Positions 9,625 through 27,266 of a stretch of 64,000 nt of DNA are shown here, in pieces (positions within the stretch are counted from its first letter, which is position 1; each line of letters begins with the position of its first letter). A program made the translations under genes and the position numbers. The notes under the pieces are model-generated. The model did no database searches and had not been told where the DNA came from. It was given only the letters and a program-made list of their open reading frames with translations. Origin of the DNA: Candidatus Omnitrophota bacterium (GTDB taxonomy: Bacteria; Omnitrophota; Gorgyraeia; Zapsychrales; JANLHA01); NCBI GenBank assembly GCA_020632555.1, contig JACKFI010000004.1:12335-76334 (forward strand), written 5' to 3'.

Positions 9625-12600
9625 TCACATTGTCACTGAAAAGCTTTCGGCACCGACCAATTCTTTGATTTCATTGATTAAAGCTTCGCTGGGAGCGACA
9701 AAAAGGTCTTCTCCTACCAGAATTTGCACACTTTTGAATTCTTGCGTATTCAAATGCAGATAAATCGGTGTTGTGCCGGGAAACAAGCTGAGCTTTTCAC
9801 GCAAAGATAAGAGAACCGGTTGTGTAATTGTAGACACATTTAAGTTGATGGCTTTAATGACTTTATAGATTTCTTCAATGCGCTTGATATCCCCGGCAAT
9901 AATATTGGGCGTTTCTTCACGAAAACCCACTCGCCCAATTACCACCACCACTGCACCTTCTTTGAGAATTTCCGCTACATTGGGATATGTGGAGGGAAAA
10001 ACCACCGCTTCTACTTCGCCATCCAAATCCTGAACTTTCACGATGGCCATACGCTCATTGCTTTTGCGCGTCGTCGTCAATTTAACACCGCTGATGATGC
10101 CAATAATCTTAACTTCTTGACCTTCCACCACACCTTTTAAATCTTTAATCGTATGTTTGGCAAACTCTTTGATTTCAGTCTTATAATGCGCCAAAGGATG
10201 TCCACTTAAATAAAAACCTAAAATCTCTTTTTCATACCCTAAAATCTCGTTCTTAGGAAATTCTTTAATATCAGGAAAAGCATTTTCTTGTTTTTTAAAT
10301 CCTCCCGCGCTTTCTCCCATACTAAAGAACGAAAATTGACCACTGGCCGCTTCTTTCTGCGATTGCGCGCCCCGCTCTAAAGCATTATCCAAAACCGCCA
10401 TCAATTGCGAACGCCGGACTTGCAAACTATCAAAAGCCCCGCATTTGATCAAACTTTCCACAACCTTGCGATTGGTCACGCGCAAATCCACCCGTTTGCA
10501 AAACTCAAAAATCGACTTGTATGGCCCATCCGCCTGCCGATTAGCCACAATGGATTCAATTGCGGTTTGACCAACATTTTTGATCGCCAAGAACCCAAAA
10601 CGAATGGTTTTTTCATCCATAACATTAAATTCAACAATACTTTCATTAATATCCGGCGGCAAAATCGCAATACCCAACTCTTCACTGGCATTAACATACT
10701 CGACAACCTTGTCGGTATTATCCTTTTCACAGGTCAGCAAAGCCGCCATATACTCGACGCTATAATTAGCTTTCAAATACGCGGTTTGATAGGAAATCAC
10801 GGCATAAGCGGCCGAATGACTGCGATTAAACCCATAGCCGGAAAAATAATCAATCAAATCAAAAAGTTTATTGGCCTCATCTTCCTTAATATGACTGGCT
10901 TTCAGGCAACCCTCAACAAACAATTTGCGAATCTTTTCCATGTCCTCAGCAACTTTCTTACTCATCGCCCGCCGCAAATGATCAGCCTGCGTCATCGAAA
11001 AACCCGCCAAAACACTGGCCATTTGCATAACTTGTTCCTGATAAATAATAATGCCAAAGGTGTCCTTTAAAAGACCTTCCAATTTCGGATGCGGATATTT
11101 CACCGTCGCTTCGCCACGTTTGCGTTTGATATAATCGTCGAGCATGCCCGAGCCCATTGGACCAGGCCGATACAAAGCCAGAATCGAAATCAAATCTTCA
11201 AACTGGCTGGGTTTAATTTTACGCAAAAGATCTCGCATACCAGCGCTTTCTAACTGAAAAATTCCCGACGCATTTCCTGTTCCCAAAAGCTCATAGGTTT
11301 TTTTATCATCCAGAGGTAATTTGCTTAAATCCAAATCAATGCCGCGAGTTTTTTTAATCCACTTAACAGCCTTGTCAATCACCGTTAAATTGCGCAAACC
11401 CAAGAAGTCCATTTTCAAAAGACCGATTTTGGCAATCCCGTCCATCGAAAAACCCGTGGTCACTTGTCCGTCGGTGCTTTTAAAAAGCGGAACATATTCT
11501 GTCAAAGGCTTATCCGCAATAACCACCCCGGCCGCGTGAATCGAAGCATGACGATTCAAACCTTCCAAAACTTGCGCGGTTTCGACAATATCATGCGCCA
11601 CCTGATTTTCTTGACACAACTTTGCCAACTGCGGCTCAACTTTAAGCGCGTCTTTAAGCGTCATGCCAATTTCAGCGGGAATCAATTTGGCAATCTTATC
11701 AACATCCGCGTACGGCGCGCTCATCACCCGCCCCACATCACGCACCGCCGCGCGCGCTTGCATGGTTCCAAAGGTAATGATTTGAGCCACATTATCCTTA
11801 CCGTATTTGTTGGTCACATAATCAATAACTTCCTGCCGACGCTCAAAACAAAAATCAATATCAATATCCGGCATACTCATTCGTTCGGGATTTAAAAATC
11901 GCTCAAACAACAAACCATAACGAATCGGGTCCAAATCGGTAATGCCCAAAAGATAACTGACCAAACTGCCCGCCGCTGAACCACGACCAGGCCCGACGGG
12001 AATCCCGCGCTGTTTAGCATAATGAATAAAATCCCAAACAATCAAGAAATAACTGACAAAACCCATTTTTTTAATGGTTTGCAATTCGTGGTTCAATCGT
12101 TCCTGCAAAACCGGCGTTATTACGCCATAGCGATCTTTGATACCACGCGTGCATAATTCTTGCAAATACTCATCCTTACCCATGCCGCCGGGCGGATCAT
12201 AATTGGGTAAATGATATTGGCCAAAACGCAAATCCAGATTACACTTGTCAGCAATCTCAACGGTATTCTGTAATGCTTCCGGCACCCACAAAAATTCACG
12301 CTTCATCTGATCAGGAGACTTGAAAAAAAACTGATCCGTTTTTAAGCGCATGCGATTAGGATCATTGAGGAAACTTTGCGTCTGAATGCACAACAAGGCT
12401 TCATGCGCTTTATACTGCGCTTGTTCCAAATAATGAACATCATTGGTAACCACCAACGGCAAATTCAGCTCTTTAGCAATGCGCATTAAGCCTTCATTGA
12501 CCGGCTTTTGATCCGGCAAACCATGCTCCATCAATTCAATGTAGAAATTGCCCTTGCCAAAAATTTGACTAAACTGATCAGCAGATTTTAAAGCGGCGTC

Positions 12601-13059
12601 ATAATGACCATTTTTAAGATTATAGGCCACCTCTCCACGTAAACACGCTGAGGTGCACAACAACCCTTCGCTGTGTTGAGCCAAAATTTCTTTGTCCATA
12701 CGCGGACGATAATAAAATCCTTCCAAATAACCAGCAGAAACCAATTTCATTAAATTTTTATAACCAGTCATATCCTTAGCAAACAAAACCAAATGTGACG
12801 ACCCGCCCTGTTGCGGATTGCGGTCAAAACGACTGCCCGGAGCCAAATACGCTTCACAACCAATAATCGGCTTGACCCCATGCTTGATCGCGGTCTGATA
12901 AAAAGTGATTGCTCCGCACAAATTGCCGTGATCGGTCATGCCCAAGGCTGGCATTTTATATTCGGCAGCTTTTTTAATCAGTTCATTGACCCGGCAAGCC
13001 CCGTCGAGTAAACTGTACTGAGTGTGAACATGAAGATGAACGTAATCGGAGAAATGCAT
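9625..13059 (-). CDS. dnaE: DNA polymerase III alpha subunit
   Basis: 1144 aa. The N-terminal PHP domain begins 'FVHLHVHTQYSLLDG', followed by pol III alpha core motifs and a C-terminal OB fold. Confidence 0.95.
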   Translation of the reverse strand: MHFSDYVHLHVHTQYSLLDGACRVNELIKKAAEYKMPALGMTDHGNLCGAITFYQTAIKHGVKPIIGCEAYLAPGSRFDRNPQQGGSSHLVLFAKDMTGYKNLMKLVSAGYLEGFYYRPRMDKEILAQHSEGLLCTSACLRGEVAYNLKNGHYDAALKSADQFSQIFGKGNFYIELMEHGLPDQKPVNEGLMRIAKELNLPLVVTNDVHYLEQAQYKAHEALLCIQTQSFLNDPNRMRLKTDQFFFKSPDQMKREFLWVPEALQNTVEIADKCNLDLRFGQYHLPNYDPPGGMGKDEYLQELCTRGIKDRYGVITPVLQERLNHELQTIKKMGFVSYFLIVWDFIHYAKQRGIPVGPGRGSAAGSLVSYLLGITDLDPIRYGLLFERFLNPERMSMPDIDIDFCFERRQEVIDYVTNKYGKDNVAQIITFGTMQARAAVRDVGRVMSAPYADVDKIAKLIPAEIGMTLKDALKVEPQLAKLCQENQVAHDIVETAQVLEGLNRHASIHAAGVVIADKPLTEYVPLFKSTDGQVTTGFSMDGIAKIGLLKMDFLGLRNLTVIDKAVKWIKKTRGIDLDLSKLPLDDKKTYELLGTGNASGIFQLESAGMRDLLRKIKPSQFEDLISILALYRPGPMGSGMLDDYIKRKRGEATVKYPHPKLEGLLKDTFGIIIYQEQVMQMASVLAGFSMTQADHLRRAMSKKVAEDMEKIRKLFVEGCLKASHIKEDEANKLFDLIDYFSGYGFNRSHSAAYAVISYQTAYLKANYSVEYMAALLTCEKDNTDKVVEYVNASEELGIAILPPDINESIVEFNVMDEKTIRFGFLAIKNVGQTAIESIVANRQADGPYKSIFEFCKRVDLRVTNRKVVESLIKCGAFDSLQVRRSQLMAVLDNALERGAQSQKEAASGQFSFFSMGESAGGFKKQENAFPDIKEFPKNEILGYEKEILGFYLSGHPLAHYKTEIKEFAKHTIKDLKGVVEGQEVKIIGIISGVKLTTTRKSNERMAIVKVQDLDGEVEAVVFPSTYPNVAEILKEGAVVVVIGRVGFREETPNIIAGDIKRIEEIYKVIKAINLNVSTITQPVLLSLREKLSLFPGTTPIYLHLNTQEFKSVQILVGEDLFVAPSEALINEIKELVGAESFSVTM

Positions 13060-13060
13060 A
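13034..13060. repeat. Direct repeat, left copy (27 bp; the functional dnaE start codon plus codons 2-9)
   Basis: AGATGAACGTAATCGGAGAAATGCATA is identical to 14209-14235. Confidence 0.95.
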
Positions 13061-13076
13061 TTTTTTATTTTTTGAC

Positions 13077-14123
13077 CTATTTTATGCTTTTACTTAATTC
13101 TTTCTCAATCTGCTTAATCGTTGGCAGACTTAATTTCAAATTCTTTGGCAATGAATGACTTAATTTATACTCCGAAACACCGATAGGTTTATGAATGTCA
13201 CTTAAAGCATATTCAGCAACCAATTTATCTTTGTTTTTGCACAACAACAGCCCTATGGTTGGCTGATCACCGGGCTTACGCAATTGCATATCGACAGCTT
13301 TAATATAAAAATTTAGCTGACCAGCAAACGACGGTTCAAAGCTTTTTGTTTTCAATTCAATAACCACGTAACAATGCAATTGTGCATGATAAAAAAGAAG
13401 ATCAATATAAAACTCCTGACTTCCAACCTGAATGTGAAATTGTTGGCCAATAAAAGCAAACCCTGCCCCCAACTCCAAGAGGAATTTAGTTAAGTGATCC
13501 ACAAGCCCTTTTTCGAGATCGCGCTCATTATAATCATCTGCCATACTTAAGAAATCAAAAACATAGGGGTCTTTTAACGTTTCATGCGCAAGGTCAGATT
13601 GTGGCTTAGGTAATGTTAAAACAAAATTACTAATCGCCTTACCTTCACGTTTATATAAACGGCTTTCTATTTGATGAGTTAAGAGGCTTCTGCTCCAATT
13701 ATGCAAAATAGTCTTTTTTACGTAATAAAACGCCTCATCTAGATTCTTACACTGTGAAATAATGACAATATTATGCCCCCAAGGGATTTGCATAATTAGT
13801 GCAACAGCTTGTTGCACTAATTCATTCTTTTTGCCGGCATAAAACAAATACCATTTTTGAATATACATCATATTCCGGCGAGAAAATCCCTTCATGGCGG
13901 GAAATTCCGTTGACAAATCTTGGCTTAACTGATCAATTAAACCATCACCCCATTTAGCTTTTTTCTGTTTAGCAACAATATCGGCGCCAATGCTCCAATA
14001 AAGCTCAAGCAACTGCGTGTTAACACTTACGGCCGCTTTAATTTGGGCATTACGAACCCGCGCTTTAATATCTGAAAGCCAGATTTTATACGCTTTATCT
14101 AAAATTAATCTTGATTTCACCAC
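13077..14123 (-). CDS. DUF1016/YhcG-family PD-(D/E)xK nuclease-like protein
   Basis: 348 aa. The N-terminal sequence 'LSDIKARVRNAQIKAAVSVNTQLLELYWSIG' is typical of YhcG. The C-terminal nuclease core is 'IDLLFYH...YVVIELK'. GTG start with a GAGGA RBS. Confidence 0.7.
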   Translation of the reverse strand: MVKSRLILDKAYKIWLSDIKARVRNAQIKAAVSVNTQLLELYWSIGADIVAKQKKAKWGDGLIDQLSQDLSTEFPAMKGFSRRNMMYIQKWYLFYAGKKNELVQQAVALIMQIPWGHNIVIISQCKNLDEAFYYVKKTILHNWSRSLLTHQIESRLYKREGKAISNFVLTLPKPQSDLAHETLKDPYVFDFLSMADDYNERDLEKGLVDHLTKFLLELGAGFAFIGQQFHIQVGSQEFYIDLLFYHAQLHCYVVIELKTKSFEPSFAGQLNFYIKAVDMQLRKPGDQPTIGLLLCKNKDKLVAEYALSDIHKPIGVSEYKLSHSLPKNLKLSLPTIKQIEKELSKSIK

Positions 14124-14138
14124 AAAATCCTCACTGTT

Positions 14139-14234
14139 TTAAAGAAACACTAAACCTGGACAAACACTGCAAAACATCAGCAAACCTTCAAATTGGCTAT
14201 TTATATGTAGATGAACGTAATCGGAGAAATGCAT
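14139..14234 (-). pseudogene. Orphaned duplicate of the dnaE 5' end (31-codon remnant ORF, MHFSDYVHLHINS...)
   Basis: The first 9 codons are identical in nucleotide sequence to the dnaE start. The sequence then diverges and stops at 14139. Confidence 0.6.
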
Positions 14235-14235
14235 A
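14209..14235. repeat. Direct repeat, right copy (27 bp)
   Basis: Identical to 13034-13060. A further 4 of the next 6 bases also match. Confidence 0.95.
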
Positions 14236-14270
14236 AATAAAAAGGATTATTGAGATTAAAAATGTGTTTT

Positions 14271-14347
14271 ATCCCAAATTTTGCGTTACAACACAGTGCG
14301 CGACGATACATTGTACACAAAAAGTAAAATGCAAAATTCGGGTTTAT
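14271..14347. repeat. Palindrome-ended dispersed repeat, copy 2 (inverted relative to 646-712)
   Basis: ATCCCAAATTTTGCGTTACAACACAGTGCGCGACGATAC...AAATGCAAAATTCGGG aligns with the reverse complement of copy 1, with a few mismatches. Confidence 0.65.
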
Positions 14348-14477
14348 ATTAACACAATATTTTTTACTAGGAAAAAATTTTTTGAATATCGTCGACAAAA
14401 ACAACGGGGGCAATGAATCAGCCAGCTCAACGAGCCTGCTTCATGCCCCCGATTTTGTACAATCTAAAAAACCCTGC

Positions 14478-15098
14478 CTACTTAATCATGATTTTTCGAC
14501 CGTCAGCCTTCTTGCTGTCTTTTTTCTCGCGAGGAATAGTAACTTTCAAAACCCCATTATCATATTGAGCATCAATCAAGTCTGCCTTGGCATCATCCGG
14601 CAAAGGGATACTTTGCGAAAAATGCCCAAATGACCGCTCTTTACGAAAGAATTGATTGCCTTTGGTTTCCTCAACCTCGCTGTTTCGCTCTCCAGAAACC
14701 AACAACATGCCCTTTTTGACTTCAACATTGATATTGTCCTTTTGCATACCAGGCAAATCAATGGTCACCACATATTGCTGATCGGTTTGCTTCATGTCCA
14801 CCTTGGTTTGAAAAACATTCATGCTGGGCATCATCGTACTTCGCATCATACGACTCATTTGTCTTTGCATTCGATCCATTTCCAAAAAAGGATCCATAAC
14901 ATCTGTTGCATAATAATTCACCGGAGACGGCTGGTTTTGATCCGCTAATTGCTGTTGCAATTGCGCAACCTGCTGTTGCAAATGTTCAACTTGCTGTTTT
15001 AACTGCGCCGTATCATCGGCACCATAACCGGTTAACGGAAAAAACGCACAGACACCAACCACCCATCCTGCCATCATTAATTTTTTATAATTCATCAT
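14478..15098 (-). CDS. Hsp20/alpha-crystallin small heat-shock protein with an N-terminal signal peptide (predicted periplasmic)
   Basis: Signal-like 'MMNYKKLMMAGWVVGVCAFFPLTGYGA', a Q-rich coiled segment, a Met-rich segment, then the ACD 'VTIDLPGMQKDNINVEV...DNGVLKVTIPR'. GGAGG RBS. Confidence 0.7.
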   Translation of the reverse strand: MMNYKKLMMAGWVVGVCAFFPLTGYGADDTAQLKQQVEHLQQQVAQLQQQLADQNQPSPVNYYATDVMDPFLEMDRMQRQMSRMMRSTMMPSMNVFQTKVDMKQTDQQYVVTIDLPGMQKDNINVEVKKGMLLVSGERNSEVEETKGNQFFRKERSFGHFSQSIPLPDDAKADLIDAQYDNGVLKVTIPREKKDSKKADGRKIMIK

Positions 15099-15129
15099 GA
15101 CCTCCGTGATTTCATGACCAAAAAATTAA

Positions 15130-15582
15130 TTATCCAACCTGTATATCAATCGATTTGGGTTGCGCCGCTTCAGACTTGGGAACACTAATCTCTAAAATCC
15201 CATCTTTATAATTAGCCTTGATTTTGTTTTGATCCACATCTGTTCCCAAATTGATAACCCGAACAAACCGGCCATACGAGCGCTCAATGCGATGCGCTTG
15301 CCGATCTTTATGTTCCGCTTCACTCTTGCGTTCACCATCAATTCTTAAAACTCCATGCTCAAAAGAAATCTTAATATCCTCTTTCTTAATCCCCGGAAGA
15401 TCAGCTTTCAATACATACTGATTCTTTTCCTCCAAAAGATCCAAAGCCGGATACCAATCTCCGCCCAGCGACGATTGAGTCTCCGTCAATGAAGAAAACG
15501 GTAAATTAAAAAAGAACCCATCATCCAAAAACTTTTTAATCACATCATTGCTGCGGTTTTGATACGGTACAATTTTCATCAT
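15130..15582 (-). CDS. Hsp20/IbpA-family small heat-shock protein (cytosolic)
   Basis: 150 aa with ACD motifs 'YVLKADLPGIKKEDIKISF' and 'YKDGILEISVPK'. Confidence 0.85.
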   Translation of the reverse strand: MMKIVPYQNRSNDVIKKFLDDGFFFNLPFSSLTETQSSLGGDWYPALDLLEEKNQYVLKADLPGIKKEDIKISFEHGVLRIDGERKSEAEHKDRQAHRIERSYGRFVRVINLGTDVDQNKIKANYKDGILEISVPKSEAAQPKSIDIQVG

Positions 15583-15756: not shown

Positions 15757-18700
15757 TTAAAGCGCGCTCAACTTTTGCGGCTCTTTCTCAATCTGCATTC
15801 CGAATAAAAGCGGTACCTGAATCGGCGCGATATTGATAATAACCGGATAAAACCCGTCAATTTTCATATTTTGTATCGTCTGCTGCGGCAGAGGCAAGGC
15901 CACACCTTTGTCGTCGCGCTTGATTTGCAAATCTAAGCCGGCCGAATTAAAATCAATACCACCGACGGGAGTGGGAGCTGTGACTGCAGCTGAGGCAACA
16001 TCACCTCCATCGCTCTTAGTAACTTCTGTAATTATTAATTCTTCTACATGCTCAGTCGTTGTATCTGGAATAGTTAACGGATGATCAAAAATATCATATT
16101 TCTCCAACTGCGCAATCTCTTCAGAAGTTAAATTTCTCTCAAAAGATGTTGTATAGTAATCAACCCTAAATTCTCCTCCTCGCAGAAGAATATGATAGAC
16201 CTGATTTAATTGATGAGGATATTTAATCCCCACATCTCCTGCACCTTGGCGAACCTGCGATTGCAACTCCTGGTAAGCTCGATCATAAAGCAAAACACGC
16301 GGGTCCGTGACATTTAGTTGATTTAATATATGCCTAACACTCACTTTACCATGACCGTTAATTTTATCACTCTGCAATAAGCCAACCAAAAATTCAATAT
16401 CCCCATACTCTCCCAATTTCAAAAGAGCATTTGCTTGGGCTAAATCATTTGAGCTGGTCGCCACTCGACGATACTGATTAATCATTTTATCTTTTGCAAC
16501 ATTTAATTTTTCTAATGCTGTTTCAACATCGGTATAATTTGATCCACTTAAAAGTGGCAACAATGGTTCAATAGCCCGAACATCTCCCAATTCACCAAGT
16601 TTTTGTATCGCATTCTTCAAACCGATAGCGTAATAACTACCCAAAACCATCATATACCCATCTACCATTTGATCTTTTGTGGCATTTAACTTTATTAGCG
16701 ATGTTTCTACATCAACGTAATTTGATCCACTTAAAAGTGGCAACAATGATTCAATGGCCCGAGCATCTCCCAATTCGCCCAATTTCTGTATAACGCCGCT
16801 TATGTTATCACTTCCCAAAGCCGCAATATACGCATCCACCATTTGCTCTTTTGTGACACCTAGCTCTACTAAAATCTCCCCAGCGTCGAAGCGAAACTGT
16901 AAGTTTGGATGTCCTAAAAGTTTTAGTAAAGAAGGAATCGTCCCTTTAAATCCTTTGCGACCAAAATAAATAACTGCTTTGGCTTTATACGTCCCCATTA
17001 TCGCCGAGGAGGCGACATAAAAATTATTTGCTATTCGTATTTCAGTGATATCTAGCTTAGGTGGAATAATTTTATTGTATTGAGGCGCAAGAGGATGATC
17101 GCCATTATCCCATCCGCCAAAATCAATCGGATCCTCATATCTCTGAGAATAATATCTAACCCGAAAATCTCCCCCTCGTAAAACAATTTGATAAGCTTCA
17201 GCAAATTCAGAAGGAAAACTAAAAACAACATCTCCTGCATCCATCGGCAACTCCGCTTGCAGCTTATTGTAAACTCTATCAAAAAGTAGCACGCGACGAT
17301 CCATGATTCTTAATTGAGACAAAATACTTCTGGCATGAAGAAGAAACGTACCTCTTTCGTGCTGCAATGATTCAATAACAAGTTCAACACCTCGTGAATT
17401 TCCTAATTTTGCTAAGGATTGCGCGGTAAGATTTCTAACACGTGCGTCTTGATCAGATAACCTCTCTGACAAAAACTCATTGGAACTCTCCTCACCCAAT
17501 TTCCCCAAAAGTTCTGCAAAAATAATACTCTTGTTAAAATCATTCCTATTTTTTGCCGATTCTAGTTTTGTCAACGCTATTGCACGCGCGCGCAAACCAT
17601 CAATTCTTTCCAAAGCTAAAGCAATCACCTGCAAAACAGAAGCGGTTATAACATTTTCCTGTTCTAATTTATTTATTATTGGCAACAAAGTTCTCTGAGC
17701 TTTCAGCTTGCCAAAAACATAAGCTATGTCCCGTACCGTCTGAGAACTGCTATCCTCCTGTTCAAATTTTGCCAATAACTCAGGAATAACATCTTGACCC
17801 CTCATAACAATTCTATCTAAATAGAGATAACGTTTAATATTGTTATCTTCAAGCGCACTGGCTCGCCTTAAATTAAATTCCACCTTATTTGTAAAATAGC
17901 CAATCGGGTCAAATTCGGCAACAGCATAAAGAGCGACACCAATCAAGAACATAGTTCCTGGATTGTGCGTGGCAAACTCCGCCGCCTGCTGAGCCCAAGT
18001 TGTAGCCGCATAGCCAAAGCTCTGCACTTGCTCAACCACGCCCCCCGCAGAAACGCTCCACCCACTGCTGGCCGCACCACTTAACATATAATTTTTTGTA
18101 TCAGTAACTGATGCTGGCTTGATATTCAATGGCACAGACGACGGACTTGCAACAGTCACATCACCTGGCCTAGCATTTTCAATCAAACTGGAACTGACAA
18201 CAACATCTCTACCATTTTCTAATGGTGATCCGGCGACAACTCCCCGCACATTCGCCGGCTGATCAGAAAGCGACCCCTGGTATTCTTTTAAACCTGCAAC
18301 TGTCGCCACACCAACAGAAAGCCCGCCAGAAAAATATTTTCGCGGAATCGGTTCATTGGTTAAAGCATCAGTATCTTCTTTAATGTAGTTATAAACGCCT
18401 TTCTTAAATGCCGCTAAATACTGTTCATAAATTTTTTGTTTGGTTTCTTTGTCGAGTAAATCAATGCCTTTGGTTTTATTTTGATTCACATAAACCTGCC
18501 CCAAAAGACTTTCCTTCAGGCGCTTTTTATACCACGTCGCTAAAATCATCGAATTGTAAATCTGGCGGACCGCCGCAAAATTGCGCCCTTCATTGACTTC
18601 TTTTTCAATCTCGGGGATAATCAGCTCACGCAGGATATTAGCACCAATTTTATTTATGTCATTGCGACTGAAGGGAGTCCCTTTTAGACGAGGACCCGCA

Positions 18701-19449
18701 GGTGACAAAGTAATCTTTTCAAAAGATTGCCGCGCCCCTTCGGGGCTCGCAATGACATTGCTTTGAGAGAGCGCCGCATAATCTTCTTCCAACATAACCT
18801 TCAAGTGACGTTCCACGACAAAAACACGATTATCGTTTTCATACACTGCCGCTTTGTCCGGCATAATCCATACTTTGTTAAAAGTGTTGACTGGCAATTG
18901 ATCAACCCCATACAACTTTTGCGCTTTTTCCCGTACCCGTTGCCAAAATTCACTGCCTAATTCTTGCTCAGGATAAATCAATGACGCCGTCAGCTGCTTT
19001 AAAATATAATCTTGCGCGAGCATATCTCGACCCATCTCGGTCACGCCCAAAGCTTCGGGAATGATTCGCCCGCTTTCATACGGAGAAAGATTAACCCAAA
19101 ATTCATTCTCAGGCGTTGTCAAAGACGCTAAAAAGTATTTAATCAGCTTTTGCGACTCTTGTTCAAGTGCTGTGCCTGAAATATTTTCATCACCAGTATT
19201 TACAATAAAATCAAATCGCAAAGGATTGCCTGGATAAATGCTCATTCCACGAATAATTGGCGGTTGAAAACTCTCGCTTAACCCCATCATTGTCCCAACT
19301 GCAGGCAAACTGACGCCGGAAATACCAACACTCTGGGCACTGGCTTTGGCAGGCATTAAAAATGATGTCATGCCAAAAACAATAACAAGGACAAAACTTG
19401 TCAACCGCCGTATAAAGCCATGATTTGTCATGAAAAGATTTCTTTTCAT
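15757..19449 (-). CDS. Giant secreted protein, paralog A (shared N- and C-modules, HEAT-repeat core)
   Basis: 1230 aa with a signal peptide ending 'AKASAQ'. About 380 aa at the N-terminus are homologous to ORF 22779-27266. The core has PBS-lyase-type HEAT repeats ('LGELGDARAIESLLPLL') and a duplicated domain ('RVLL(F/Y)DR(V/A)Y..LQ...LRGG(D/E)FRV.YY'). The C-terminus is 'GGIDFN...YPVIINIAP'. Confidence 0.7.
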   Translation of the reverse strand: MKRNLFMTNHGFIRRLTSFVLVIVFGMTSFLMPAKASAQSVGISGVSLPAVGTMMGLSESFQPPIIRGMSIYPGNPLRFDFIVNTGDENISGTALEQESQKLIKYFLASLTTPENEFWVNLSPYESGRIIPEALGVTEMGRDMLAQDYILKQLTASLIYPEQELGSEFWQRVREKAQKLYGVDQLPVNTFNKVWIMPDKAAVYENDNRVFVVERHLKVMLEEDYAALSQSNVIASPEGARQSFEKITLSPAGPRLKGTPFSRNDINKIGANILRELIIPEIEKEVNEGRNFAAVRQIYNSMILATWYKKRLKESLLGQVYVNQNKTKGIDLLDKETKQKIYEQYLAAFKKGVYNYIKEDTDALTNEPIPRKYFSGGLSVGVATVAGLKEYQGSLSDQPANVRGVVAGSPLENGRDVVVSSSLIENARPGDVTVASPSSVPLNIKPASVTDTKNYMLSGAASSGWSVSAGGVVEQVQSFGYAATTWAQQAAEFATHNPGTMFLIGVALYAVAEFDPIGYFTNKVEFNLRRASALEDNNIKRYLYLDRIVMRGQDVIPELLAKFEQEDSSSQTVRDIAYVFGKLKAQRTLLPIINKLEQENVITASVLQVIALALERIDGLRARAIALTKLESAKNRNDFNKSIIFAELLGKLGEESSNEFLSERLSDQDARVRNLTAQSLAKLGNSRGVELVIESLQHERGTFLLHARSILSQLRIMDRRVLLFDRVYNKLQAELPMDAGDVVFSFPSEFAEAYQIVLRGGDFRVRYYSQRYEDPIDFGGWDNGDHPLAPQYNKIIPPKLDITEIRIANNFYVASSAIMGTYKAKAVIYFGRKGFKGTIPSLLKLLGHPNLQFRFDAGEILVELGVTKEQMVDAYIAALGSDNISGVIQKLGELGDARAIESLLPLLSGSNYVDVETSLIKLNATKDQMVDGYMMVLGSYYAIGLKNAIQKLGELGDVRAIEPLLPLLSGSNYTDVETALEKLNVAKDKMINQYRRVATSSNDLAQANALLKLGEYGDIEFLVGLLQSDKINGHGKVSVRHILNQLNVTDPRVLLYDRAYQELQSQVRQGAGDVGIKYPHQLNQVYHILLRGGEFRVDYYTTSFERNLTSEEIAQLEKYDIFDHPLTIPDTTTEHVEELIITEVTKSDGGDVASAAVTAPTPVGGIDFNSAGLDLQIKRDDKGVALPLPQQTIQNMKIDGFYPVIINIAPIQVPLLFGMQIEKEPQKLSAL
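18658..18756. repeat. 99-bp palindromic repeat element embedded in frame in paralog A
   Basis: GTCATTGCGA (18658-18667) is the reverse complement of TCGCAATGAC (18747-18756). There is an inner hairpin GATTGCCGCGCCCCTTCGGGGCTCGCAATGAC. It is translated as '...SRND...VIASPEGARQS'. Confidence 0.6.
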
Positions 19450-22778: not shown

Positions 22779-25700
22779 TCAGCTTTTCTGAGCCAAGATA
22801 TCTTCCTCACGAATAGCTTTTTGCCGATCTGCTGGTGAGAGCTGATCTTTAAACGCTGCCTTCTTCTGCTGAGCCTCTTCAGCCTTACTTAACAGCGGGA
22901 AATTCGCCATCGTTGCCGGCGCGATATTGATAATAACCGGATACAATCCTTCGATATTGATATTCGGCAAGTCCTGTTGAAATACCGGCAAAGGAACGCC
23001 ATTCTTGTCTCGTTTAACTTGAAGATTCATTAAAGTCGGATCAAAGTTGATACCACCGACTTGCGAAGAAGCCGTAGCGCCGGCTTTCACATCTTCGCCA
23101 ATCTTGTTAATGGTTGAGTCATAAGCCTTCAAAGCTTTAACAATATTCCAGCGATTATTCTTAAATACTTTAATTGCCTCATCTATTCGATTCTCTCGAT
23201 TTTCTAAATATGGATTCTTAAAAGCAATAATGTCACTAGTCAAATCACGAACCCACCCGATATCGATTCCAATATCGAGAACGCCAGATTTTAATGCGGC
23301 AGTTAACGCCTTGTTAAGCGAATCGCCCAAAAGCGCAGCTATAGCCTTATTTAATTCTTCTTCACTTGATTTAATCTTAGATCCTCTTGCCTGATCTCCC
23401 GCCGGCAATCGTTGAGCTTTATCATAAACCGCCCACACTTGCTCAAGTTGATCAATCATCTGCGTTAACGCGCTGGAGGAGACCACTTGATCCAAAACGA
23501 TATCCACAAAATTTATATCCAATTCTTGTAACCATCCTTCAAGTTCTGAGAATTTTGTGCCGATCAATCCTTGCGTATAACTATCCACTCCGTCTACTCC
23601 TGCATTGTCTATACTATGTTGTGCCCATAAATCATGCATCTGTGTTCCAATATTAATAACCATTAAATCTTGTTGGGAATCTAATTGACTCCCAGATTTA
23701 ATACGTTCTAAGGCATCTTTAACCTGACTTCGTACTGCTTCTAAATCCTCTCCTTGACTTATTAATCCCTGAATAACATCCACCGCATCTTGCAATCCAA
23801 CGCCATCCATATCTTTCAAATTCTGTGTCTTATCAACATAGGGCGTTGTAAATAAATCCATATAAATAACCCCTTGGGCGTCTCTTCCTATGTGTTCCCG
23901 GCCTTTGAGAATTTCAACAACCCCACGTTTTTTCTTATCTTCTTTAGTTGGAGTAATCCATTCTCCCTGAATACCAGACTTGAGAGTTTTATCGTCATTG
24001 GTAACAAAGCGCGCTTGTGTCCAATTTGCCTTTGTCTGAGCCCCTTGCGCATTTGTAGCTATATATCGCAATGTCGCTTGCTCCCCTGACTTTTCTATAA
24101 TATCTGCTGGAATCGTCACCGCACTGGCGGCGGAGGCCCAATGCTTAACAATTCTCTTTGCAACGTCTGTCGCATTGTCCTGACCACGGGGAATAGCATA
24201 ATTTGGCGTATCGATCAAGATATGCTTAACAAGCTTTTCCTGCTGATGACGATGTTTAATGGAGTTCAGTGCGATTTCTACAGCAGCAATCACTTGATCA
24301 TCCGCTTTACCAACCGTATGAACTGGCTGACCTTTCTCGTCAAGAATCATAATTCTGTAATCATCCTCCCCAGATAAAATTGCAACAAAAAGATCTAGTC
24401 CCTTAACATGCATCGGAGATATAGAACGAACCTCTCGACTGCCAGGCATAAAAACTGTCACACTTTCCCCATGCCTAAGAGTAATTTTAACTTGATAATC
24501 ATTTATGATCTCTGCTTTAACCGCGCTGGAGGAGACGAAAGTGATTTCCACAATATTCTCAATTGGTATTTCTTGAGATATACCAGTCAGGCTTATGCTT
24601 CTAACTGTTTTATTTGATTGAGCCTGCTGCAGTTTATTAAGAATTCCCTCAGAATGATTTCTTGCAAATTTTTTTATTGTTTCAATATTAGAATCAGACA
24701 AATCATGTTTTAAACGTACTTCTTCTGAAGAAACGAATTCGATAACTTCCGAATCAAGCAACATATTTTGGACACTTTTTTCTTCATCGGTAGCCTCACC
24801 AAAAACAAAAGGCTCAAATTCTCGAGTAATAGCATCAATCTTATTATTATCAAGCTTGTATGCCTGCACTGCTCCATCGACGACAAATTTTATTTCACGA
24901 ACACGCGTATCCTTAGCAACTGTACCATTTTTAATTGCAGCCAAAAGTGCATCTGCACTGTTTAACTTAATTATTTCTCCAGCCGTCACAGCGCTGGCGG
25001 CGGGCTCGCTATTCTTTAAGTCATAAGCCTTCAAAGCTTTAACAATATTCCAGCGATTATTCTTAAATACTTTAATTGCCTCATCTATTCGATTCTCTTG
25101 ATTTTCTAAATATGGATTCTTAAAAGCAATAATGTCACTAGTCAAATCACGAACCCACCCGATATCGATTCCAATATCGAGAACACCAGATTTTAATGCG
25201 GCAGTTAACGCCTTGTTAAGCGAATCGCCCAAAAGCGCAGCTATAGCCTTATTTAATTCTTCTTCACTTGATTTAATCTTAGATCCTCTTGCCTGATCTC
25301 CCGCCGGCAATTGTTGAGCTTTATCATAAACCGCCCACGCTTGCTCAAGTTGATCAATCATCTGCGTTAACGCGCTGGAGGAGACGAAGATATCTAAGGA
25401 AACAATATCATTGATCGCTACATTTCCCCGCAAAGAAAAATCTATGCTCGAAACTTCTCCGTACTCATCTCTATTTATGCGATCAATTGTTCCAACATTT
25501 GTAGTAGAGGCGAAAGACCCACGAAACTTTCCACTTCTAACTTCCTGCCCAACATTGATTTCACCATCCTCTATACGCAAAGAAATTTTATCCCCAGAAA
25601 ATTCTTTTGAATCTCGTTGCGTTGACGTCTTGGCGGGCAAGCCTACACGTGCTCGAACAGCATTTTCTTGATACTCATATGTTGTTTTTAAGTTCTCAGC

Positions 25701-27266
25701 AAAAACGATTGCCTCTCTACTTGCATTGCTATTCGATTGTTGGGCATAATTCAGATTCGCATTTGCGGCATTTACTAATCCTTCATAGGTCAATTGATCT
25801 ACTTGATTACCACTGGCCTTTTCTATAAGACCAATTATCTGGTCTTTCAATCTAGCTTTCACGTCTGCTGGCAAAAACGTAAACTCTCTTTCGAAAGCGT
25901 TGGTCACTAATGCTTTTGCTTCATCCACCGCGCTGGCGGCGGATTTGGCGGCGACTTTGTTAGCAATGGTACGACTGTCTTGACCATTCACCTCTCCCAT
26001 CTGAACCATTACATCAGCATCATTAGCATTAACTGCTGATGCAGCAACACCATTTGCACCCTTTTGAACTACATTAGGTAAAACAACCCCACCGGAAAAA
26101 TAACGTGTCGGCACCGACTCAGCTGTATTCATATCAAAATCTTCTTTAATCATATTGTAAGCGCCTTTTTTGAAGGCTTGGACATACTGATTGTAAACAT
26201 CTTGTTTGAAACCCACAGCGTCGGTTTCGATGCCTTTGACCTTGCTTTTGTCGGCATAGATTTTGCCCAATAAAGATTCTTTCAAAGCGCTTTTGTACCA
26301 GACAGCGAGAATTGCGGCATCATAAATTTGACGCACAGCAGCGAAGTTTTTGCCTTCATTGATTTCTTTTTCGATACTGGGAAGAATGGTGGTGCGAAAG
26401 ACTTGGGAGGAAATTTTCAATATGTCATTGTCAGCAGCCGCAGGTGACCCAGCAATCTTATCCTTACTGTCATTCCCGTAATCTTTTAACGGGAATCCAT
26501 TATTTGTAAAAGGATCCCCGATAGAAGCCTTCGGAGATGACAAATTTGAAACAGATTGCTTCACTTCGTTCGCAATGACAGAGCTTTTTGCTAACGTCTT
26601 TTGCATAGCATCCAGATCCTCTTCCAACATCACCTTCAAACGATTTTGGGTAATGAAAACTTTGCCGTCTTTTTCGGCGACTTCGGCCTTGGCCGGCACA
26701 ATCCACACCTTATTAAAAGTACTCATCGGAATATCAGTGGTCCCAAATTGCTCTTGCACTTTCGCGCGAACATTGGTCCAGAACTTTTTGCCCAAGTCTG
26801 TTTCGGGATTAGTCAAGGAAGATGCTAATTGTTTCAAAAGATAATCTTGCTCAAGCATAACCTTGCCCATTTCGGTCTTGCCCAAAGCATCAGGAATAAT
26901 ACGATTGGCTTCATAGGGAGAAAGATTGACCCAAGCTTCTTTGTCGGGAATGGTCATCGCAGTTAAAAAAAACTTAACCAGCTTTTCGGACTCAGCTTTA
27001 AGCGCCGGGCCCTGAATTTTGTCATCGCCGCGGCCAACGATAAAATCAAATAAAAACGGATTCTCCGGATGAATATTCAAACCTTTGAGCGTCGGCGCGA
27101 TAAAAACCGGCGAAATCGTCACCGCCGTCCCCGGAACAGGCAAAAGGCTGGCTAATTGCGCGCTGGCCGGACCAGGCAAACTCATAAGAAATGTCAAAAT
27201 GATTAAGCAACAGATTATTTTTTTGACAAAAACAAATTTCCGACGAGCGGCAAAAGACAAAAACAT
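22779..27266 (-). CDS. Giant secreted protein, paralog B (shared N- and C-modules, modular core with a near-identical 122-aa duplication)
   Basis: 1495 aa with a signal peptide ending 'GPASAQ'. The N-module is homologous to paralog A ('WVNLSPYE..RIIP..LG.TEMG..ML.QDY.LKQL'). The C-module is 'GGINFD...LYPVIINIAP'. GGGAGG RBS. Confidence 0.7.
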   Translation of the reverse strand: MFLSFAARRKFVFVKKIICCLIILTFLMSLPGPASAQLASLLPVPGTAVTISPVFIAPTLKGLNIHPENPFLFDFIVGRGDDKIQGPALKAESEKLVKFFLTAMTIPDKEAWVNLSPYEANRIIPDALGKTEMGKVMLEQDYLLKQLASSLTNPETDLGKKFWTNVRAKVQEQFGTTDIPMSTFNKVWIVPAKAEVAEKDGKVFITQNRLKVMLEEDLDAMQKTLAKSSVIANEVKQSVSNLSSPKASIGDPFTNNGFPLKDYGNDSKDKIAGSPAAADNDILKISSQVFRTTILPSIEKEINEGKNFAAVRQIYDAAILAVWYKSALKESLLGKIYADKSKVKGIETDAVGFKQDVYNQYVQAFKKGAYNMIKEDFDMNTAESVPTRYFSGGVVLPNVVQKGANGVAASAVNANDADVMVQMGEVNGQDSRTIANKVAAKSAASAVDEAKALVTNAFEREFTFLPADVKARLKDQIIGLIEKASGNQVDQLTYEGLVNAANANLNYAQQSNSNASREAIVFAENLKTTYEYQENAVRARVGLPAKTSTQRDSKEFSGDKISLRIEDGEINVGQEVRSGKFRGSFASTTNVGTIDRINRDEYGEVSSIDFSLRGNVAINDIVSLDIFVSSSALTQMIDQLEQAWAVYDKAQQLPAGDQARGSKIKSSEEELNKAIAALLGDSLNKALTAALKSGVLDIGIDIGWVRDLTSDIIAFKNPYLENQENRIDEAIKVFKNNRWNIVKALKAYDLKNSEPAASAVTAGEIIKLNSADALLAAIKNGTVAKDTRVREIKFVVDGAVQAYKLDNNKIDAITREFEPFVFGEATDEEKSVQNMLLDSEVIEFVSSEEVRLKHDLSDSNIETIKKFARNHSEGILNKLQQAQSNKTVRSISLTGISQEIPIENIVEITFVSSSAVKAEIINDYQVKITLRHGESVTVFMPGSREVRSISPMHVKGLDLFVAILSGEDDYRIMILDEKGQPVHTVGKADDQVIAAVEIALNSIKHRHQQEKLVKHILIDTPNYAIPRGQDNATDVAKRIVKHWASAASAVTIPADIIEKSGEQATLRYIATNAQGAQTKANWTQARFVTNDDKTLKSGIQGEWITPTKEDKKKRGVVEILKGREHIGRDAQGVIYMDLFTTPYVDKTQNLKDMDGVGLQDAVDVIQGLISQGEDLEAVRSQVKDALERIKSGSQLDSQQDLMVINIGTQMHDLWAQHSIDNAGVDGVDSYTQGLIGTKFSELEGWLQELDINFVDIVLDQVVSSSALTQMIDQLEQVWAVYDKAQRLPAGDQARGSKIKSSEEELNKAIAALLGDSLNKALTAALKSGVLDIGIDIGWVRDLTSDIIAFKNPYLENRENRIDEAIKVFKNNRWNIVKALKAYDSTINKIGEDVKAGATASSQVGGINFDPTLMNLQVKRDKNGVPLPVFQQDLPNINIEGLYPVIINIAPATMANFPLLSKAEEAQQKKAAFKDQLSPADRQKAIREEDILAQKS
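23118..23483. repeat. 366-bp intragenic direct repeat, copy 1
   Basis: Aligns with 25020-25385 with 4 mismatches by eye. It encodes 'VSSSALTQMIDQLEQ.WAVYDKAQ.LPAGDQARGSKIK...NRWNIVKALKAYD'. Confidence 0.9.
25020..25385. repeat. 366-bp intragenic direct repeat, copy 2
   Basis: See 23118-23483. The copies start 1902 bp apart. Confidence 0.9.
26469..26579. repeat. 111-bp degenerate palindromic element embedded in frame in paralog B (homologous position to 18658-18756)
   Basis: GTCATTCCCG...GATTGCTTCACTTCGTTCGCAATGAC, translated as 'VIANEVKQS'. The alternate frame gives 'CHCERSEAI'. Confidence 0.5.

Follow-up and report, generated by a model that had tools for sequence, protein, structure and literature searches.

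A DUF1016 nuclease gene at the 5' end of dnaE in a Candidatus Omnitrophota lineage: probable single, old insertion accompanied by a long target duplication

Introduction

How did a lone nuclease gene come to stand directly in front of the gene for a DNA polymerase, bracketed by two copies of that gene's own 5' end? The question is raised by a stretch of 64,000 nucleotides (nt) from a Candidatus Omnitrophota bacterium (GenBank assembly GCA_020632555.1, contig JACKFI010000004.1, positions 12,335 to 76,334), hereafter the window, in which a gene of the DUF1016/YhcG family lies immediately upstream of dnaE. An earlier note, made from the letters of the window, had read the arrangement as a site-specific insertion that regenerated the dnaE start and had raised the possibility that DUF1016 nucleases behave as autonomous, homing-like mobile cassettes. 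Having compared the locus with related genomes and with other members of the family, we find an old and fixed insertion, and consider it probable that the nuclease open reading frame (ORF) entered the 5' end of dnaE a single time, duplicating a long stretch of its target.

DUF1016/YhcG is an uncharacterized PD-(D/E)xK family with a helical N-terminal domain of ~200 amino acids (aa) and a nuclease domain nearest to those of archaeal Holliday-junction resolvases and YraN (Kosinski 2005). Its members have been noted as a lone gene within a Rickettsia conjugative element and between Type I restriction genes (PMC9881135), and the candidate defense class PDC-S02 has its origin in "guilt by embedding" (Payne et al. 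2024 preprint, 10.1101/2024.01.29.577857), a study in which the entry route and flanking repeats of embedded genes are not addressed. The route by which DUF1016 genes arrive is undiscussed in the papers on the Kosinski fold, the Rickettsia element, the Type I operons and guilt by embedding. Restriction-type genes are known to move by insertion with a long, variable target duplication (Gene 259:99, 2000; Furuta, Abe and Kobayashi 2010, PMC2853133), and the published insertions of this kind include that of a lone Type IV nuclease gene, mcrA.

Results

The direct repeat and the gene between its copies

Exactly two copies of the 27-mer AGATGAACGTAATCGGAGAAATGCATA are present in the window, at 13034..13060 and 14209..14235 on the minus strand, where chance predicts none (0 in 100 shuffles with 3 mismatches tolerated). 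A repeat finder lengthened this core to 31 nt, of which 30 match, with a spacing of 1175 nt between the copies, and the 27-bp duplication reported earlier is in this respect real and slightly longer. The downstream copy (13034..13060) is the functional one: it runs from base -1 of dnaE through the ATG and codons 2-8 to the second base of codon 9, and, as the earlier note held, it heads the full-length gene (9625..13059, minus strand, 1144 aa). The dnaE product carries all five Pfam domains of DNA polymerase III alpha (PHP, DNA_pol3_alpha, finger, HHH_6 and OB) and matches the NCBIfam equivalog PRK06826 at 1535 bits; the target gene is intact and forms the last cistron behind the insert. The upstream copy (14209..14235) lies at the ancestral dnaE start and opens a 31-codon remnant or leader ORF (14139..14234, minus strand; MHFSDYVHLHINSQFEGLLMFCSVCPGLVFL, followed by a stop codon) that begins at the ancestral ATG.

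Between the two copies, Pfam and an ORF scan found one gene only, on the same strand as dnaE. The insert measures ~1.07-1.1 kb, consists of one ORF and ~30 nt, and has a GC content of 35-38% compared with 41-44% in the flanks. The repeat finder detected no terminal inverted repeats at the insert ends, and searches of Pfam domains and ORFs found no integrase, transposase or other recombinase in the insert or up to 15 kb on either side, which bears out the first description of a single-gene insert. Direct repeats of ~27 bp are typical of attachment (att) cores, and integration at a gene end that is then regenerated is typical of integrative elements; the locus resembles such elements in both respects, and the gene could be imagined as the last cargo of a decayed genomic island or integrase insertion, left with its att repeats. 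However, there is no integrase remnant, the insert is limited to the ORF and ~30 nt, the same minimal content is found in a sister lineage (L060, described below), and the ORF-only architecture recurs at unrelated sites. Nor was a larger element with an integrase found at the dnaE site among the related loci with upstream DNA, and we regard decay from an island as very unlikely.

The inserted gene encodes a member of the DUF1016/YhcG family (COG4804), with both Pfam domains above their gathering scores: DUF1016_N (PF17761; E = 5e-42, 143.6 bits versus a cut-off of 32.8) and YhcG_C (PF06250; E = 9e-67, 224.2 bits versus 32.5). Residues D241, E256 and K258 (IDLLF...VVIELK), invariant in 35 homologues, correspond to the D...E-x-K motif of PD-(D/E)xK nucleases, in agreement with Kosinski 2005. 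The coding sequence (13077..14120, minus strand) specifies 347 aa when read from the second of two GTG codons, and this start at 14120 is more likely than the first, because it lies 7 nt after a Shine-Dalgarno-like GAGGA (14128..14132, minus strand, identical in L060) and because the first GTG is GTA in L060. With a dN/dS (ratio of nonsynonymous to synonymous divergence) of 0.088 between the window and L060, the gene is under purifying selection and is functional by evolutionary criteria. Protein homologues at 62-80% identity are spread over several phyla. By sequence, the nuclease had no match in the PDB; an AlphaFold2 model from 35 homologues was mediocre (predicted local distance difference test score of 64 overall and 50-60 in the nuclease domain), and Foldseek of this model against the PDB returned nothing below E = 0.01, its weak PD-(D/E)xK look-alikes being MGME1, RecE and Cas4. 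Neither the model nor the look-alikes were used as evidence. The best PADLOC model was PDC-S02, a full-length match (5.3e-152), and because of this match to a candidate defense class the cellular role of the nuclease is probably defense-like or restriction-like. No experiment showing phage protection by PDC-S02 was found in the literature searched, and defense function is a prediction.

Empty and filled sites in related genomes

Relatives were gathered by a search with the DnaE N terminus, keeping one genome per species. They are Candidatus Omnitrophota metagenome-assembled genomes, some of them deposited as 'Planctomycetales', and their DnaE N termini show aa identities of 93-94% (L001, L002, L003 and L014), 87% (L004) and 65-75% (L005-L013) to that of the window. 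According to tblastn, DUF1016 is absent near dnaE from all 13 related loci that hold DNA upstream of this gene. Window positions 14236..14338, to the right of the right repeat copy, align with the DNA directly upstream of dnaE in L002 and L003, and in both genomes the alignment crosses the junction, running from the upstream region straight into dnaE. This is the empty site, which in the sequence of the window would read ...CCTTTTTATT + core + TCATGTTCAC. Because the upstream DNA of L002 and L003 aligns to the right of it, the right repeat copy is the ancestral dnaE start, and the claim that it heads a remnant seated on the ancestral upstream region is borne out. The whole intergenic region at 14236..14477 (minus strand), homologous to the dnaE upstream DNA of L002 and L003, presumably holds the ancestral promoter.

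A filled site was found in L060, an 8.8-kb contig from another sample whose nuclease protein is 94% identical to that of the window. Its gene order is that of the window (hsp20, remnant, DUF1016, dnaE, HU, hisS, aspS), and the two are collinear at 90.8% nucleotide identity over 5.5 kb, with 97% aa identity in DnaE and a synonymous divergence (dS) of 0.33-0.57. The repeat copies of L060 have diverged, matching at 24/27 positions in the core and at 35/44 (80%) overall. Since L060 shares the filled site with diverged repeats, the comparison indicates that the insertion is old and fixed, dating from before the split of the window and L060 lineages and after the split from the empty-site relatives. 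The comparison of empty and filled sites that the earlier note called for has therefore yielded both states, and a recent event is not what it points to, given that a sister at ~91% nucleotide identity carries the insertion. The note had also allowed for an ancient duplication with diverged repeats in all relatives; the repeats have indeed diverged in L060, but most relatives are empty.

The exact nuclease protein was also found on a 1201-bp contig from the Logan assemblies (L059, SRR12358675_11589453), which equals window 14234-13034. Because three independent assemblies (window, L059 and L060) agree, we consider mis-assembly at the repeat, which the earlier note had flagged, to be excluded; the arrangement is reproduced in L059 and L060 from other samples. 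We see hardly any room for an assembly artifact, or for the alternative that the order DUF1016-dnaE is ancestral and was precisely lost in the relatives. Direct repeats do permit precise deletion, but the single filled clade contrasts with 13 loci, in relatives of increasing depth, that are empty, and a truncated remnant of the dnaE 5' end arises only by insertion or duplication.

Both ends of the L059 contig fall within 1 nt of a repeat boundary. Logan assemblies are probably built with k = 31, at which a 27-bp repeat alone should not break a contig, so in this sample the cassette may also occur in another setting, such as a circle, a tandem copy or different flanking DNA. The hypothetical circle or tandem junction would read ...AAAAAATAAAAAA + TATGCATTTCTCCGATTACGTTCATCT + ACATATAAATAGCC. 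An exact-match look-up of the window DnaE and Hsp20 proteins, which could have placed empty and filled alleles in the same sample, returned none on record.

Extent of the duplication and the upstream remnant

The similarity between the upstream remnant and dnaE does not stop at the core. By blastn, the alignment with L002 extends through the repeat to window position 14162, which corresponds to dnaE nt 73, and local alignment recognizes a decayed continuation of the target duplication at 14162..14208 (minus strand), covering dnaE nt ~27-78 with indels. When the remnant beyond the core was aligned locally to dnaE nt 27-110 of the relatives, the scores exceeded those of 500 shuffles (p<0.002 for L002, p=0.006 for L060 and p=0.008 for L014); against the window's own, more diverged dnaE, the local alignment was not above 500 shuffles. 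These alignments indicate that the original duplication spanned dnaE from base -1 to at least ~+78, and the idea of the repeat as a 27-bp site gives way to that of a core surviving intact from a duplication that measured at least 78 bp.

Window and L060 agree at 107/111 positions of the leader region (4 differences), next to 219/241 in the adjacent intergenic DNA. This conservation is significant relative to synonymous rates and marginal relative to the local intergenic rate (p = 0.02), a hint that the leader may be under constraint. Its RNA fold was not above shuffles (z = -0.27), and Rfam returned nothing at E<=1 for window 12900-14700.

Present expression of the locus

Downstream of the nuclease stop codon, the repeat follows after 16 nt and the dnaE ATG after 17 nt, and the interval holds no terminator-like site; the essential gene does sit right behind the insert, as first described. 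The 16-nt A/T-rich spacer (13061..13076, minus strand) would serve as the new dnaE leader and shows no similarity to the ancestral one in an alignment with the ancestral upstream region. Upstream, the TAA of the remnant ORF lies 6 nt before the Shine-Dalgarno sequence and 18 nt before the likely GTG of the nuclease. From this layout, leader ORF, nuclease and dnaE most likely form one transcription unit read from the ancestral dnaE promoter, and their translation may be coupled. A consensus scan also gave a promoter-like match in the nuclease 3' end (13079..13108, minus strand; TTGAGA, 18 nt, TAAAAT; 10/12), ~20 nt before the dnaE ATG; matches in this region were not above shuffles, and it is only a candidate for an alternative source of dnaE transcripts.

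Flanking repeats across the DUF1016 family

The survey comprised 80 further metagenomic loci (47-67% identity) together with close homologues, and direct repeats within 150 nt of the gene were scored at z>=5. Such flanking repeats were found for 12/68 DUF1016 genes versus 3/159 neighboring control ORFs. A conservative count that drops the duplicate event L060, the REP-rich (repetitive extragenic palindromic) L069 and the tandem-repeat L114 leaves 9/65 versus 1/157 (Fisher p = 8e-5). The repeats are 17 to ~100 bp long, abut the ORF and occur at varied gene boundaries. Three sets of repeats were not taken as target duplications. Those of L069 (3299-3322 and 4622-4645) are REP-like sequences (TCACCTCGTTCCCACGCGCTGCGT..GGGAATGCAGTCAAGGCGCGCTGCGCCG) that also flank control genes, whereas those of L114 (~396-424 and ~1802-1831, GCTAACAGC-type arrays) and L123 (~433-472 and ~2048-2087) were set aside as low-complexity or tandem-repeat DNA, which in these two loci sits 170-260 nt from the DUF1016 genes.

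Close homologues are single genes, co-oriented within housekeeping operons. In L061, DUF1016 lies between nuoD and nuoE with a diverged ~98-nt copy of the nuoE 5' end directly upstream, and the stop of the nuoE remnant ORF overlaps the nuclease ATG (TTATGA). In L062-L064 it follows a T2SS-F gene, and the flanking 31-58-nt repeat (21 nt exact) covers the 3' end of that gene; in L062, the intact part of the repeat lies away from the cassette and the diverged part adjoins it. L065 has DUF1016 between thiL and tsaE with no repeat. Elsewhere, repeats lie at the junction of the hsdM stop and hsdS start (L077 and L139), at the 5' untranslated region and ATG of the downstream gene (L091) or at a ribosome-binding site (L088). 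Overall, neighboring genes are co-oriented with DUF1016 in 82-86% of cases, and 4-nt overlaps are frequent.

A second pair of filled and empty sites was found on plasmids. Aeromonas media plasmid pMC64A (L160, 258495-265478) has the order hsdM, DUF1016, hsdS, rhuM, hsdR, and each end of the DUF1016 ORF bears the hsdM/hsdS junction as a 21-22-nt repeat; in related A. veronii and Paracoccus plasmids hsdM is joined directly to hsdS. The pMC64A DUF1016 gene opens with the ATG and the first three codons of hsdS, and its 3' end is a copy of the final codons of hsdM; this Type I operon holds two embedded single genes, DUF1016 (hsdM/hsdS) and rhuM (hsdS/hsdR). A Ralstonia megaplasmid copy (L159) has no flanking repeat and carries no annotation.

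These data bear on the homing-like reading, in which the nuclease would cut the dnaE 5' end and the gene would copy itself into the break. The locus does recall the free-standing homing genes of phages and PD-(D/E)xK homing enzymes such as I-Ssp6803I, likewise single nuclease ORFs packed among or in essential host genes; the gene is intact and selected, target repeats bracket more than one single-gene insertion of this family, several phyla have homologues that are 62-80% identical, and the L059 contig, whose ends lie 1 nt or less from the repeat boundaries, hints at another context or a circular form. Homing endonucleases, however, return to one specific site, and homing by double-strand-break repair makes no target duplications, unlike what is seen here, where a duplication is present and no single target recurs. 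Among >90 DUF1016 loci, dnaE lies downstream solely in the sister lineage L060, and targets and repeat lengths differ from event to event. An identical DUF1016 protein was never found in two contexts (P0079 and P0020 have one each), the window holds one copy, and the insertion is old and vertically inherited. Homing-like mobility is therefore improbable in our judgment; of the proposal of a site-specific insertion that regenerated the dnaE start, the insertion stands and the site specificity does not, since targets and repeat lengths vary.

A palindrome within the nuclease gene

The nuclease gene contains a perfect palindrome with 13-bp arms, AATTAGTGCAACA-GCT-TGTTGCACTAATT (13794..13822), which is identical in L060. 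In 73/88 DUF1016 genes, the homologous place, ~24 nt ahead of the conserved IPWGHN motif, holds a palindrome with perfect 9-16-bp arms, and no other hairpin in the gene is as long; when 162-nt tiles of these genes served as controls, the best arm was usually 4-5 bp and reached 9 bp or more in only 8/421. The loop is 1-3 nt long, and the consensus AATTGnnCAACAG-S-CTGTTGnnCAATT encodes (I/F)(V/G)QQxV(A/G)Q(L/I) (L059-L163). Motif copies in tandem (2-3) were seen in L091, L107 and P0006.

The arms vary between lineages yet stay complementary. Among 76 distinct sequences, 93.6% of cells are paired, and sliding the partner by 1-3 columns lowers pairing to 27-41%. Eleven of 12 pairs changed on both sides, and 124 cells changed on both sides versus 29.5 in shuffles, none of 500 of which reached 124. 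Sequences were centred on the best hairpin, which favors central pairing; the whole-gene scan and the tile control are free of this bias. Where one arm has changed an amino acid (e.g., Q to P), the other arm has followed with synonymous changes. Mismatches of the G:T type are as rare as those of the A:C type (8 versus 9), so there is no wobble signal of an RNA helix, and selection looks strand-symmetric, as would suit a DNA cruciform, a single-strand hairpin or a symmetric binding site.

In E. coli K-12 MG1655, yhcG carries a perfect palindrome with 15-bp arms, AAAGATTTGGCAGAC-gct-GTCTGCCAAATCTTT, at the homologous place (L163 7205-7237, corresponding to NC_000913.3 ~3368204-3368236), with a sequence unrelated to the Omnitrophota palindrome; the yhcG locus itself (L163) has no flanking direct repeat. 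No earlier description of a DUF1016 palindrome was found in the literature searched. Since its fold is resolvase-like, the DUF1016 protein may itself have its site in the palindrome. A bolder extension would make DUF1016/YhcG genes widespread ORF-sized, recombinase-less mobile cassettes whose Holliday-junction-resolvase-like nuclease acts on its own palindrome, folded into a cruciform or a single-strand hairpin, and so drives or regulates insertion at gene boundaries with long target duplications; this we regard as a speculation with a small chance of being right.

The surroundings of dnaE

The neighbors of the locus in the window are housekeeping genes: aspS, hisS, a gene for an HU/IHF-type protein, two hsp20, guaA, guaB, groEL, recO and phoH. 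The two hsp20 genes (14478-15582) occur in the window and L060 and are missing at the equivalent place in L002 (6271-10000), where a 1149-aa ORF ends 280 nt upstream of dnaE; the pair is a second difference in gene content from L002 beside the insertion site. Two huge ORFs, at 15757-19449 (1230 aa, with HEAT repeats) and 22779-27266 (1495 aa, with no Pfam match), are partial paralogues with 47% identity over ~390 aa, and L002 and L004 carry several copies related to them upstream of dnaE.

Discussion

The dnaE insertion is a new instance of a gene movement that has already been described. As in the cases of Furuta 2010, a nuclease-type gene without transposase or integrase lies between direct repeats that correspond to a single copy in the empty-site genome, and the repeats are long, vary in length from event to event and often overlap gene ends. 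Of the four features by which those cases were recognized, three are seen here, namely an empty-site genome, a duplication of >30 bp, and an insert of <20 kb without mobility genes. The fourth, homologues of both restriction (R) and modification (M) genes, is missing, as the locus has a nuclease-like gene only; this is a screening rule and no property of the process, because Furuta 2010 also reports the lone mcrA insertion. Unlike those cases, DUF1016 inserts are ORF-sized and co-oriented in operons, several borrow the start codon of the downstream gene, and the target here is the coding 5' end of an essential replicase gene.

Other kinds of mobile gene fit less well. The repeats are long and variable, and there is neither a transposase domain nor terminal inverted repeats, as a transposon or insertion sequence would have; a tyrosine or serine recombinase, as expected of an integrase island, is absent from the insert and from 15 kb around it. 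Judged from the sequences compared, the locus lacks at least one of the examined defining features of each of these kinds: homing endonucleases, transposons and integrase islands. SXT/R391 integrative conjugative elements, which are ~100 kb long, carry a tyrosine integrase and use a fixed 17-bp att core, enter prfC at its 5' end and bring along a replacement 5' end and promoter. The present insert is like them in entering the 5' coding end of a housekeeping gene whose start is regenerated, with a repeat at both junctions, and unlike them in being one 1-kb ORF without a recombinase. The PDC-S02 match and the many relatives between hsdM and hsdS (PMC9881135) recall the embedded defense genes of Payne 2024; the host unit here, however, is a housekeeping one (hsp20, dnaE, HU/IHF, hisS) and not a defense system.

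We picture the event as follows. One foreign piece of ~1.07 kb, bearing the nuclease gene and its own Shine-Dalgarno sequence, would have inserted once into the dnaE 5' end in the common ancestor of the window lineage and L060, accompanied by a target duplication from dnaE base -1 to at least +78. The downstream copy would have remained the working dnaE start, and the upstream copy would have decayed by substitutions and indels, except for its first 27-31 nt, into the 31-codon leader ORF. The nuclease would then be expressed from the promoter of the essential gene, and dnaE read through or just behind the nuclease. Staggered breaks or template switching may have given rise to the duplication, and it is possible that the nuclease itself provoked them.

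Several points weigh against this account. The upstream copy has decayed unevenly: compared with the inferred ancestor, nt 1-27 of the remnant are ~26/27 identical, with about one change, nt 28-47 form a hyper-divergent patch of ~55% identity, and nt 48-78 retain ~75% identity with three indels. Such a pattern is unexpected under simple neutral decay; it could mean that the working copy has converted the remnant, that the start region is constrained, or that a crossover took place there. About 85% of DUF1016 loci have no detectable repeat, a majority that fits old age but also fits other routes of arrival. DUF1016 is not a recognized restriction enzyme and, unlike most published cases, comes without a methyltransferase partner. 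To speak of insertion with long target duplication is to classify the event and not to give its mechanism. Lastly, co-transcription with dnaE and defense activity are predictions.

The uneven decay is also a ground for a Campbell-type integration. In this view, a small circular DNA already contained a diverged fragment of the dnaE 5' end, acquired through excision between flanking repeats in an earlier host, and recombined with the resident gene inside the 27-31 identical bp; the repeat would then be an att-like crossover core and no fresh duplication. Identity is high over the first 27-31 nt and drops sharply in nt 28-47, L062 shows a similar arrangement, its repeat being intact on the far side and diverged next to the cassette, and the L059 contig spans the locus from repeat to repeat. 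The 27 bp are near the minimum length for RecA-dependent exchange in E. coli. Past nt 47, however, the remnant is ~75% identical to the relatives' dnaE and shows ancestral-type states, as a duplicate of the resident gene would, and a first non-homologous insertion would still be required for each new target. The sharp step at nt 27 that a crossover junction would leave was weakened by a re-count against the relatives, which found the patch at nt 28-47 followed by better conservation; plain duplication and decay is therefore preferred, and we consider integration from a circle unlikely.

On the reading of a single insertion with target duplication, a foreign nuclease gene holds the promoter-proximal place of an essential replicase gene and has been kept there over a dS of ~0.3-0.6, a clear example of a selfish or defense-type gene securing its expression and retention ahead of an indispensable one. 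The survey extends recombinase-free movement with long target duplication to DUF1016, among the commonest uncharacterized nuclease families, and offers a concrete account of how its members come to be embedded in operons, ORF-tight and co-oriented, Type I restriction operons included. The family-wide palindrome, kept complementary despite its amino-acid cost, is a strong new clue to the role of the DUF1016 protein, and one that can be tested in E. coli K-12.

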